From Escherichia coli (GTDB lineage Bacteria > Pseudomonadota > Gammaproteobacteria > Enterobacterales > Enterobacteriaceae): 64,000 nt of DNA. Location of the stretch: NCBI RefSeq assembly GCF_003334315.1, contig NZ_QOWR01000012.1; one strand, 5' to 3'. Of this stretch, positions 5,319 through 56,135 are shown one piece after another (the stretch's first letter is position 1; every line of letters begins with the position of its first letter). Under the pieces are notes generated by a model. It did no database searches, was not told the DNA's origin, and worked only from the letters and a program-made list of their open reading frames with translations. The position numbers and the translations under genes were made by a program.

Positions 5319-6071
5319 TTACTTCGCTTTACCCTGGTTTGCAACCGCCGCTGCTTTCGCTGCGATCTCGTCAGCATTACCCAGATAATAGCGTTTCAGC
5401 GGTTTGAAATTCTCGTCGAACTCATACACCAGCGGCACGCCAGTCGGGATATTAAGCTCAAGAATCTCTTCTTCGCTCATGTTATCAAGATATTTCACCA
5501 GCGCACGTAAAGAGTTACCGTGTGCAGCGATGATCACGCGCTCACCGCTCTTCATACGCGGCAGAATAGTTTCATTCCAGTAAGGGATCACGCGGTCAAT
5601 GGTCAGCGCCAGGCTTTCCGTCAGCGGCAGTTCTTTCTCGCTCAGTTTCGCGTAACGCGGATCGTGACCCGGATAACGCTCATCATCTTTAGTCAGTTCC
5701 GGCGGAGTCACTGCAAAACCACGACGCCACTGTTTCACCTGCTCGTCGCCATACTTTTCAGCAGTTTCCGCTTTGTTCAGACCCTGCAACGCACCGTAGT
5801 GACGTTCGTTCAGTTTCCAGGATTTCTCAACGGGCAGCCATGCCTGATCCAGTTCGTCCAGCACATTCCACAGGGTATGGATAGCGCGTTTCAGCACAGA
5901 AGTGTAAGCAAAGTCAAAGCTGTAACCTTCCTCTTTCAGCAGCTTACCTGCTGCTTTTGCTTCGCTTACGCCTTTCTCAGACAGATCCACGTCGTACCAA
6001 CCGGTGAAACGGTTTTCTTTGTTCCACTGACTTTCGCCATGACGAACCAGAACCAGCTTAGTTACAGCCAT
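5319..6071 (-). CDS. gpmA: 2,3-bisphosphoglycerate-dependent phosphoglycerate mutase
   Basis: ORF trimmed to [17 protein letters not shown] (250 aa) with the RHGE phosphohistidine motif. Confidence 0.93.
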
Positions 6072-6272
6072 ATACTTACTCCTCAAATCATCTTTTAATG
6101 ATAATAATTCTCATTATATTGCCGCGACGAAGCAACAGCAATGCTTACGCATAACCATAGCGAAAATAGTGGCGCAGTGTAAGGTTGTTGTGAATATTGA
6201 GTTGCAAATATGTCGGTGTTTGCTGGTGATTTGAACAATATGAGATAAAGCCCTCATGACGAGGGCGTAACA

Positions 6273-7313
6273 TTACTCAGCAATAAACTGATATTCCGTC
6301 AGGCTGGAATACTCTTCGCCAGGACGCAGGAAGCAGTCCGGTTGCGGCCATTCAGGGTGGTTCGGGCTGTCCGGTAGAAACTCGCTTTCCAGAGCCAGCC
6401 CTTGCCAGTCGGCGTAAGGTTCGGTTCCCCGCGACGGTGTGCCGCCGAGGAAGTTGCCGGAGTAGAATTGCAGAGCCGGAGCGGTGGTGTAGACCTTCAG
6501 CTGCAATTTTTCATCTGCTGACCAGACATGCGCCGCCACTTTCTTGCCATCGCCTTTGGCCTGTAACAAGAATGCGTGATCGTAACCTTTCACTTTGCGC
6601 TGATCGTCGTCGGCAAGAAACTCACTGGCGATGATTTTGGCGCTGCGGAAATCAAAAGACGTTCCGGCGACAGATTTCAGGCCGTCGTGCGGAATGCCGC
6701 CTTCATCAACCGGCAGATATTCGTCCGCCAGAATCTGCAACTTGTGATTGCGCACGTCAGACTGCTCGCCGTCAAGATTGAAATAGACGTGATTAGTCAT
6801 ATTCACCGGGCAAGGTTTATCAACTGTGGCGCGATAAGTAATGGAGATACGGTTATCGTCGGTCAGACGATATTGCACCGTCGCGCCGAGATTACCCGGG
6901 AAGCCCTGATCACCATCATCTGAACTCAGGGCAAACAGCACCTGACGATCGTTCTGGTTCACAATCTGCCAGCGACGTTTGTCGAACCCTTCCGGCCCGC
7001 CGTGCAGCTGGTTAACGCCCTGACTTGGCGAAAGCGTCACGGTTTCACCGTCAAAGGTATAACGGCTATTGGCGATACGGTTGGCATAACGACCAATAGA
7101 GGCCCCCAGAAACGCGGCCTGATCCTGATAGCATTCCGGGCTGGCACAGCCGAGCAGCGCCTCGCGGACGCTGCCATCGGAAAGCGGAATACGGGCGGAA
7201 AGTAAAGTCGCACCCCAGTCCATCAGCGTGACTACCATCCCTGCGTTGTTACGCAAAGTTAACAGTCGGTACGGCTGACCATCGGGTGCCAGTGCGGGAG
7301 TTTCGTTCAGCAC
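6273..7313 (-). CDS. galM: Aldose 1-epimerase (galactose mutarotase)
   Basis: 346-aa ORF; last gene of the gal operon; start overlaps the galK stop. Confidence 0.93.
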
Positions 7314-20362: not shown

Positions 20363-21796
20363 ATGAATAAGAAATCGTTATGGAAGCTAATTCTGATATT
20401 AGCGATCCCATGTATTATTGGTTTTATGCCAGCTCCGGCAGGATTAAGCGAACTGGCGTGGGTGCTTTTTGGTATTTACCTGGCGGCCATTGTGGGGCTG
20501 GTTATCAAGCCTTTCCCGGAACCTGTCGTACTGTTAATTGCCGTTGCTGCCTCAATGGTGGTGGTCGGTAACTTATCCGACGGTGCGTTTAAAACCACCG
20601 CCGTATTAAGCGGTTACTCTTCAGGTACCACCTGGCTGGTGTTCTCGGCGTTTACCTTAAGCGCCGCATTTGTGACCACCGGTTTAGGTAAACGTATTGC
20701 CTATCTGCTGATTGGTAAAATCGGTAACACCACGTTGGGTCTGGGTTACGTTACGGTATTCCTCGATCTGGTACTGGCTCCGGCAACACCGTCTAACACC
20801 GCGCGTGCGGGCGGCATTGTGTTACCGATCATCAACAGCGTGGCGGTGGCTTTGGGGTCCGAACCGGAAAAAAGTCCGCGTCGTGTCGGACATTACCTGA
20901 TGATGTCCATTTACATGGTCACCAAAACCACCAGCTATATGTTCTTTACCGCAATGGCGGGGAACATTCTGGCGCTGAAAATGATCAACGACATTCTGCA
21001 CCTGCAAATTAGCTGGGGTGGATGGGCGCTGGCAGCCGGATTGCCGGGCATCATTATGCTGCTGGTCACCCCGCTGGTGATTTACACCATGTATCCACCA
21101 GAAATTAAGAAGGTGGATAACAAAACCATCGCTAAAGCGGGCCTTGCCGAACTAGGACCGATGAAAATCCGCGAAAAAATGCTGCTCGGTGTCTTTGTGC
21201 TGGCGCTGCTGGGCTGGATTTTCAGTAAGTCTCTGGGGGTTGATGAATCCACCGTGGCAATCGTTGTTATGGCAACCATGCTGCTGCTGGGTATCGTTAC
21301 CTGGGAAGACGTGGTTAAAAATAAAGGCGGCTGGAATACCTTAATCTGGTACGGCGGTATTATCGGCTTAAGCTCCTTATTATCGAAAGTTAAATTCTTC
21401 GAATGGTTAGCTGAAGTCTTTAAAAATAACCTGGCATTTGATGGTCACGGTAACGTTGCTTTCTTCGTTATTATTTTCCTCAGCATTATCGTGCGTTATT
21501 TCTTCGCTTCCGGTAGTGCCTATATCGTTGCTATGTTACCGGTATTTGCCATGCTGGCGAACGTCTCCGGCGCACCGTTAATGTTAACCGCGCTGGCACT
21601 GTTGTTCTCCAACTCCTATGGCGGCATGGTTACTCACTATGGCGGCGCGGCAGGTCCGGTCATCTTTGGCGTGGGTTATAACGATATTAAATCCTGGTGG
21701 TTGGTCGGTGCGGTACTGACGATATTAACCTTCCTGGTGCATATCACCCTCGGCGTGTGGTGGTGGAATATGCTGATCGGCTGGAACATGCTGTAA
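20363..21796 (+). CDS. ybhI: Divalent anion:Na+ symporter (DASS) family carboxylate transporter
   Basis: 477-aa highly hydrophobic ORF recognised as YbhI. Confidence 0.88.
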   Translation: MNKKSLWKLILILAIPCIIGFMPAPAGLSELAWVLFGIYLAAIVGLVIKPFPEPVVLLIAVAASMVVVGNLSDGAFKTTAVLSGYSSGTTWLVFSAFTLSAAFVTTGLGKRIAYLLIGKIGNTTLGLGYVTVFLDLVLAPATPSNTARAGGIVLPIINSVAVALGSEPEKSPRRVGHYLMMSIYMVTKTTSYMFFTAMAGNILALKMINDILHLQISWGGWALAAGLPGIIMLLVTPLVIYTMYPPEIKKVDNKTIAKAGLAELGPMKIREKMLLGVFVLALLGWIFSKSLGVDESTVAIVVMATMLLLGIVTWEDVVKNKGGWNTLIWYGGIIGLSSLLSKVKFFEWLAEVFKNNLAFDGHGNVAFFVIIFLSIIVRYFFASGSAYIVAMLPVFAMLANVSGAPLMLTALALLFSNSYGGMVTHYGGAAGPVIFGVGYNDIKSWWLVGAVLTILTFLVHITLGVWWWNMLIGWNML

Positions 21797-21798
21797 AT

Positions 21799-21925
21799 AT
21801 ACTCGTCATACTTCAAGTTGCATGTGCTGCGTTTGCGTTCGCTCACCCCAGTCACTTACTTATGTAAGCTCCTGGGGATTCACTCACTTGTCGCCTTCCT
21901 GCAACTCGAATTATTTAGAGTATAT
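21799..21925. repeat. ERIC (IRU) element, 127 bp
   Basis: Contains cgctcaccccagtcacttactt and atgtaagctcctggggattcac (the two classic ERIC core sequences); terminal inverted repeats caagttgca/tgcaactcg. Confidence 0.85.
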
Positions 21926-21978
21926 CCATTTATTATCTTTCTGCGCACTTCACGGTGCGCAGATATCTGGAGCATTTG

Positions 21979-56019: not shown

Positions 56020-56135
56020 GTAGCGTAAACGCCTGATCCGTCCAACGGTTCGGATTTTGTAGGCCTGATAAGACGCGGTAGCGTCGCATCAGGCATCTGT
56101 TGCCGGATGCGGCGTAAACGCCTTATCCGTCCTAC
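56020..56135. repeat. BIME with at least two REP elements
   Basis: gtaggcctgataagacgcggtagcgtcgcatcaggca and tgccggatgcggcgtaaacgccttatccgtcctac. Confidence 0.75.

Follow-up and report, generated by a model that had tools for sequence, protein, structure and literature searches.

A canonical full-length ERIC between ybhI and ybhJ of Escherichia coli and its possible role as a transcribed hairpin

ERICs are non-autonomous miniature inverted-repeat mobile elements (MITEs) of Enterobacterales, reportedly described as ERIC, IRU or RU-1 elements by Sharples & Lloyd in 1990 and by Hulton, Higgins & Sharp in 1991. De Gregorio et al. are said to have found in 2005 that the ERICs of Yersinia influence mRNA stability in a manner that depends on their orientation, and that an RNase E site lies in the right-hand terminal inverted repeat (TIR). 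Elements of the REP/BIME type, such as the one in malE-malF, are intercistronic stabilisers of mRNA. Reviews list TIRs, the duplication of a TA target and TA at the termini as properties of ERICs, and they describe the Yersinia copies as co-transcribed elements that destabilise upstream transcripts through the ribosome-dependent exposure of an RNase E site, an effect for which orientation is crucial. Here, the repeat that separates ybhI from ybhJ is considered, as found in a 64-kb stretch of E. coli DNA (referred to below as the window) with the gene order pgl-ybhD-ybhH-ybhI-ybhJ-ybhC-ybhB-bioA. This copy is a canonical full-length ERIC (IRU, RU-1), an ordinary representative of an already known kind. 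The best overall explanation of the locus, to which a probability of roughly 0.6 can be assigned, is that this canonical ERIC is a transcribed hairpin that alters the stability of ybhHI mRNA relative to that of ybhJ.

The element between ybhI and ybhJ is an ERIC, an identity that is virtually certain. The 22-mers ERIC1R (ATGTAAGCTCCTGGGGATTCAC) and ERIC2 (AAGTAAGTGACTGGGGTGAGCG), which we take to be the standard ERIC-PCR primer pair, both match the spacer exactly (22/22 each), and their sites abut, back to back. Each 22-mer has this single site in the window even when up to three mismatches are allowed, with 0 expected from shuffled sequences. The two occur together in 233 papers retrieved by a text search, with typing studies among the matches listed, which is consistent with their being that primer pair. 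A nhmmer profile of independent ERIC copies has one match in the window, at the same site (E = 3.4e-44), and the family consensus, made from 10 independent copies, aligns here without gaps over 127/127 positions at 93.7% identity. An earlier note on this DNA had read the spacer as holding a complete 127-bp ERIC in which both core sequences lie back to back between TIRs. This reading stands: the consensus alignment, both primer sites and the K-12 gene annotation agree with a complete element between ybhI and ybhJ, the two cores join at 21861/21862, and the ends form a pair of 26-nt repeats that are 81% complementary. The coordinates given in that note (21799-21925) identify the right element with both ends shifted by one base, as the consensus aligns to 21798-21924, a difference that is immaterial. 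The locus thus combines a core inverted repeat, a length of about 127 bp, TIRs that form a hairpin, TA termini and a sequence with dispersed copies elsewhere. The strand on which the element reads CGCTCACCCCAGTCAC...GGGGATTCAC is the plus strand of the window, which is the sense strand of both ybhI and ybhJ (Table 1).

Table 1. Coordinates of the ERIC, its parts and the adjoining features in the window
Feature	Position	Strand	Basis or detail
Full-length ERIC/IRU, 127 nt	21798..21924	+	Consensus alignment, nhmmer
123-bp core TACTCG...GAGTA, left over assuming TA target-site duplication	21800..21922		Filled vs empty alleles
Left TA, putative target-site duplication copy	21798..21799		
Right TA, putative target-site duplication copy	21923..21924		
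Left TIR	21797..21822		26 nt, 81% complementary
Right TIR, AU-rich run GAAUUAUUUAGAG in sense RNA	21900..21925		26 nt, 81% complementary
ERIC2 primer site, left half of conserved core	21840..21861	-	Exact match
ERIC1R primer site, right half of conserved core	21862..21883	+	Exact match
Central core hairpin, 14-nt arms, 4-nt loop	21846..21877		Arms 21846-21859 and 21864-21877
ybhI, anion permease/putative tricarboxylate transporter	20363..21796	+	K-12 RefSeq annotation
ybhJ, aconitase-family hydratase, ATG 21979, Shine-Dalgarno (SD) GGAG 21969-21972	21979..24240	+	K-12 RefSeq annotation
Stem-loop 5' of ybhJ SD, outside ERIC	21940..21963	+	9-bp perfect inverted repeat

The copies behind the consensus were taken from plasmid records and a few viral contigs, all independent of the ybhI-ybhJ locus. 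They represent E. coli, Citrobacter braakii, Klebsiella oxytoca, Salmonella, Pantoea, Lelliottia and Rahnella, the E. coli copies being those of plasmid-borne pepD-yafP, btsT-hpa and yecR regions. Plasmid copies were used for the family alignment since independent viral ERICs are few: a core 16-mer has 22 matches in viral contigs, only 3-4 of which are independent ERICs, the rest being mostly the same chromosomal locus or else unrelated sequence that does not align as an ERIC. The sampled ERIC copies align along the whole length of the element, and the consensus hairpin of the family is made up of 35 pairs, with compensatory changes at 16. A variant of the left internal arm (CATGTGCTGCGTYTGCG) has its only counterpart among the sampled copies in that of pepD-yafP. 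Copies of the element were found in 339 plasmid records, whose hosts include Salmonella, Escherichia, Klebsiella, Citrobacter, Rahnella and Pantoea, and the number of matching places in an E. coli genome has a median of 13 (range 2-21, 5426 genomes). The same ybhI-ybhJ copy is present in the K-12 reference genome, where the RefSeq records bear no feature annotation for it. Five IMG/VR contigs that are filed as viral (L053, L062, L064, L067 and L068) contain the chromosomal ybhI-ybhJ ERIC locus, and these may be prophage-adjacent host DNA or misclassified contigs.

Comparison of the window with Rfam yields nothing at the ERIC at gathering thresholds, and at permissive thresholds only a sub-threshold match to V_AS5 and a partial match to isrH are found there. 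V_AS5 (RF02818, a 129-nt model) aligns to the minus strand of window 21802-21925 with 46.4 bits, which is less than its gathering score of 96, so that the ERIC is not a member of this family by the Rfam criterion. The alignment spans the full length of the model, indicating that the V_AS5 family itself appears to be an ERIC-type repeat. Similarly, the partial match to isrH (21796-21934) suggests that isrH includes ERIC-like sequence. The REP-type models naRNA4 and ES036 have no match at the ERIC, and their matches lie elsewhere in the window, at 56062-56132 (naRNA4) and at 34082 and 50785 (ES036). Another REP-type sequence (naRNA4, 60.7 bits) is found at 24335-24405, in the ybhJ-ybhC spacer, and appears to be polymorphic, as gaps cover all or most of it in E. 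coli GF4-3, in the Escherichia lineage L003 and in E. whittamii (L018). Other features of the window include a Moco riboswitch (103.6 bits, 35388-35532) and, within positions 1-280, two tRNA genes and an RtT-type repeat.

The history of the site can be read from a YbhI-relative scan of one genome per species (50 loci). A comparison of presence and absence at this position, which the earlier note had put forward as a check, separates filled from empty sites. The ERIC is present in E. coli (K-12 and E69), E. albertii and E. whittamii, and it is missing from the Escherichia lineages L003 and L004, from the eight intact Citrobacter loci compared, from Edwardsiella hoshinae and from E. coli GF4-3. 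The spacing between ybhI and ybhJ is 182 nt in the window and 26-91 nt at the ERIC-less loci of L003, L004, Citrobacter and Edwardsiella hoshinae, with empty-site alleles having a spacer of only 57 nt. Intestinirhabdus alba also lacks the ERIC and has a 197-nt spacer of unrelated sequence. The order ybhH-ybhI-ybhJ is conserved, also in species without the ERIC. In L003 and GF4-3, the empty site reads TAA-ATAT-CC, and the filled site reads TAA-A-TA-(123 bp)-TA-T-CC, for a net gain of 125 bp. The exact junction is ambiguous by 4 nt within ATAT, and a difference of 125 bp between filled and empty alleles together with a 123-bp core fits the duplication of a TA target site. The TAA stop of ybhI (21794-21796) is unchanged between filled and empty alleles, and the GGAG and ATG of ybhJ are invariant across species; the insertion left the ybhI stop, the ribosome-binding site of ybhJ and an older stem-loop upstream of it intact. 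It appears that the ERIC inserted at the TA inside ATAT in an ancestor of Escherichia species and is now essentially fixed in E. coli.

Among complete E. coli genomes, at least 5331 of the 5347 that have the locus are filled. The first number counts genomes that cover at least 80% of a 321-bp query, 40% of which is ERIC, and the second counts those that have the flanks, leaving at most 16 locus-bearing genomes without an intact filled site. One of these is GF4-3 (L052, NZ_CP053258.1, 3100-3170), the only complete E. coli genome identified with a clean empty site, which leaves at most 15 other locus-bearing genomes that have no intact filled site. Across the cluster GF4-3 is E. coli-like, with 98-99% identity, and its YbhH has the same accession as that of K-12. 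About 450 bp around the site bear the empty-haplotype SNPs of a different Escherichia lineage, and four or five flanking SNPs, including those at 21679, 21757, 21928 and 21931, are common to GF4-3 and L003. These common SNPs rule out a fresh precise excision in GF4-3 and indicate that its empty allele is old, or that it lies on a short imported tract.

Several other arrangements were seen at or near this position. In L004 (Escherichia sp. MOD1-EC7003, 5432-5501), the stop codon of ybhI is followed by 10 extra nt (TTATTTAAAA) that resemble the right end of the ERIC (AATTATTTAGAG). Citrobacter has TAATTAAAT... at this position, and the extra nucleotides of L004 may be the remnant of an ERIC deletion or may be ancestral. 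In E. coli 23AR0998 (H1, NZ_CM132249.1), copies of IS1A interrupt the ybhI/ybhJ region, where the match falls into three pieces and a transposase is annotated twice. Members of the Klebsiella oxytoca group (L011, L012 and L014, at about 5432-6950) have about 1.5 kb, presumably an extra gene, between ybhI and ybhJ. Relatives of ybhJ, ybhH and ybhI are also contiguous in Veillonella spp. (L032-L040, L050), in the order J-H-I (amino acid identities: YbhI and YbhJ 53-58%, YbhH about 38%), indicating that ybhH, ybhI and ybhJ are linked across phyla.

The stem-loop between the ERIC and ybhJ consists of a perfect 9-bp stem (TCTGCGCAC / GTGCGCAGA) with a 6-nt loop, 5-6 nt on the 5' side of the ybhJ SD. 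A stem-loop of different sequence is found at the same position in most of the Citrobacter compared, in C. koseri, in Edwardsiella hoshinae and in Intestinirhabdus, and 5 of the 8 consensus pairs have compensatory changes across genera. Its occurrence at the same place in species that never had the ERIC indicates that this stem-loop pre-dates the insertion, and it may have been the element that first stood between the cistrons of the operon.

Between species, the ERIC is strongly conserved. The E. albertii copy is identical to that of E. coli E69 (0/129 differences) and differs from that of the window at 2/129 positions, whereas 23% of the third codon positions of ybhI and ybhJ differ between the window and E. 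albertii, as do 12/74 positions of the ybhH-ybhI spacer and 21/233 of the ybhJ-ybhC spacer. The 0-2/129 differences in the ERIC are thus to be set against 9-16% in the other spacers of the cluster, an excess of conservation that speaks for constraint but could also mean recent transfer. The immediate flanks (150 nt and 53 nt) are about 95% similar between E. coli and E. albertii, compared to 87-90% for the rest, a difference suggestive of a short recombination tract. Lineages placed by identity between E. albertii and E. coli still have empty alleles. Conservation of the element within E. coli is unremarkable: between the window and K-12, 3/129 positions of the ERIC and 1/1434 of ybhI differ, and the allele of the window is a minority allele. 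Two of its substitutions are private (21833 C>T and 21886 G>A). The idea that they form a compensatory pair was rejected, as the sense-strand fold is slightly weakened. Either change alone shifts the antisense fold by no more than 0.6 kcal/mol. In the ERIC of E. whittamii (L018:5435-5563), CTC in the right half of the core (window 21872-21874) is changed to TGA, so that the central inverted repeat becomes perfectly palindromic over 14 nt. This looks like a hairpin-templated conversion and not like three independent substitutions.

Folding of the interval, also put forward in the earlier note, predicts a stable structure. The sense RNA forms a long hairpin of -37.6 kcal/mol (z -4.3), compared to -51.2 kcal/mol (z -7.8) for the antisense RNA. 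In all 10 family copies tested, the strand that is sense here gives the less stable fold, by 6-21 kcal/mol, and A-C mismatches of one ERIC strand are G-U pairs on the other. The left end of the element lies 2 nt past the ybhI stop and its right end 54 nt before the ybhJ ATG, so that the ERIC is intergenic and adjoins an upstream stop codon, as expected of regulatory ERICs of the De Gregorio type, which would lie next to such a codon or overlap it. When the footprint of a ribosome at the ybhI stop is masked, the probability of being unpaired rises from 0.23 to 0.65 in the left arm and from 0.23 to 0.39 in the right arm, meaning that the mask disrupts the outer stem and makes the AU-rich right arm modestly more accessible. 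The right TIR includes an RNase E-type motif (RN↓WUU) at 21908, which is weak and common by chance, and this motif was set aside as evidence for RNase E as too degenerate.

It is plausible, as proposed in the earlier note, that the ERIC is inside a ybhHIJ transcript, a view that agrees with the conserved gene order and with the short spacer of alleles that lack the element. The single paper found on the operon identifies ybhH (and ybhI) as targets of YbhD and treats ybhHI as a cluster, with ybhJ named separately; neither the paper nor its supplement gives expression values for ybhJ. A scan of 21797-21978 predicted no sigma-70-like promoter, and, on either strand, no intrinsic terminator with a GC-rich stem followed by a T-run. 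Co-transcription of the ERIC with ybhI is probable. The mechanism proposed here would begin with transcription of the element within a ybhH-ybhI-ybhJ mRNA, or by read-through from ybhI into ybhJ, after which it would fold into a long imperfect hairpin. The left arm starts so near the ybhI stop codon that a ribosome terminating there would prevent the outer stem from closing and release the AU-rich right arm. The ERIC could then shift the balance of stability between the upstream (ybhHI) and downstream (ybhJ) segments of the mRNA, possibly through RNase E. This role in stability is proposed by analogy with the Yersinia ERICs, which makes an effect on mRNA stability, or one that involves RNase E, plausible for the ybhI-ybhJ copy as well. 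The suggestion of the earlier note, that the hairpin could set ybhJ expression apart from that of ybhH-ybhI or be a target of RNase E, agrees with what the reviews say of Yersinia. The chances that the element measurably changes the ybhI:ybhJ mRNA ratio at the post-transcriptional level appear about even, and it is doubtful that the element is maintained by selection for such an effect. Speaking against a functional effect, the sense orientation folds more weakly than the other (-38 vs -52 kcal/mol), the element shows no special conservation within E. coli, its conservation between species could come from a filled allele that spread laterally at a late stage, and the empty allele is viable in nature, as found in GF4-3.

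The alternative that deserves most attention is that the ERIC is a neutral passenger, a relic of a selfish element that has become fixed and does not meaningfully affect the expression of ybhHIJ. Its conservation would then stem from a recent spread by homologous recombination, or from a low local mutation rate, and not from function. This is possible, if not favoured. It would fit the coexistence of empty and filled alleles in Escherichia, with even one E. coli genome being empty, and an insertion that spared the ybhI stop, the SD and the older hairpin; the raised similarity of the flanks in the comparison of E. coli with E. albertii would agree with a short recombination tract, and the element is variable among E. 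coli. On the other hand, a hairpin of 127 nt and about -38 kcal/mol that starts 2 nt past a stop codon is unlikely to be entirely silent in mRNA, the low number of interspecies differences relative to the other spacers of the cluster is harder to accommodate, and according to reviews, Yersinia ERICs measurably affect flanking transcripts. At the other extreme, purifying selection may preserve the ERIC for its ability to uncouple, at the level of the RNA, the ybhHI part of the operon from ybhJ. This notion derives from the identity of the E69 and E. albertii copies despite the 23% difference at surrounding synonymous-type sites, and it is rather unlikely. If it were true, the empty alleles of GF4-3 and of the two Escherichia lineages would be either ancestral or precise losses, and nature would have provided at this locus a ready experiment on how ERICs function and move in E. 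coli.

Uncoupling might instead occur during transcription, with the hairpin and the U-rich CCAUUUAUUAUCUUUCU acting as a partial terminator or pause site, such that ybhHI would be the main unit and ybhJ would be expressed by read-through. A long hairpin followed by a U-rich tract is indeed present, and the literature names a ybhHI cluster and mentions ybhJ separately. Nevertheless, the terminator scan of the spacer was empty, the stem, unlike that of an intrinsic terminator, has an imperfect, AU-rich base and is followed by an interrupted U-rich tract, and ERIC-less species keep the gene order with short spacers, all of which makes this mode of action very unlikely. It is hardly credible that ybhJ is transcribed from a promoter that the ERIC provides, or that the ERIC encodes an RNA of its own, antisense or small, similar to Vibrio V_AS5. 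The minus strand does fold much better than the sense strand (-51 kcal/mol, z -7.8), and V_AS5 (RF02818) aligns with it over its full length (1-129, E = 5e-9), but the match, at 46 bits, falls far short of the gathering score (96) and is most simply explained by shared ERIC ancestry. Neither strand has a promoter-like site in or beside the element, and the only near-consensus -10 (TATTAT, 21931-21936) was found, by manual reading, to be without a -35. The terminator and promoter readings are both ranked low owing to the empty scan. The preferred reading, that of a transcribed canonical ERIC whose hairpin affects the relative stability of the ybhHI and ybhJ mRNAs, is a reasonable functional suggestion by analogy and would be in line with published work on the ERIC family.

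With ERICs known from as early as 1990-91 and this copy present in the K-12 reference, the locus matters little on its own. Its practical value lies in having clean filled and empty alleles in very similar backgrounds (GF4-3 vs other E. coli). It adds to this a geometry in which the element adjoins a stop codon, and an operon that can be derepressed by deletion of ybhD. Together, these properties indicate that the locus could be used to test in E. coli the model of orientation, ribosome and RNase E that comes from Yersinia. It could also help to show whether the strong conservation of the ERIC between species reflects function.

The known systems to which the ybhI-ybhJ element can be compared differ in how closely they resemble it. 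REP/BIME elements, such as that of malE-malF, are likewise repeated palindromes between the cistrons of an operon, whose hairpin can cause discoordinate expression, but they form a separate family, with a REP of about 35 nt that is GC-rich. The Vibrio antisense RNA AS5 (V_AS5) evidently belongs to the same repeat superfamily, as it aligns at full length, with a score below gathering. The Yersinia ERICs of De Gregorio et al. 2005 are of the same repeat family, and the ybhI-ybhJ copy also has an AU-rich right arm in the sense RNA; it occurs in another host and at another locus. A regulatory ERIC of that type would lie in a specific ('B') orientation relative to the upstream gene, and the ybhI-ybhJ copy has the weaker-folding strand, with the AU-rich right arm, as its sense strand. 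From the ERIC/IRU family at large it differs in nothing of substance, the variant of the left internal arm being locus-specific, and it has the same length, core, TIRs and TA termini, the same intergenic position at the end of a gene and the same dispersed copies.
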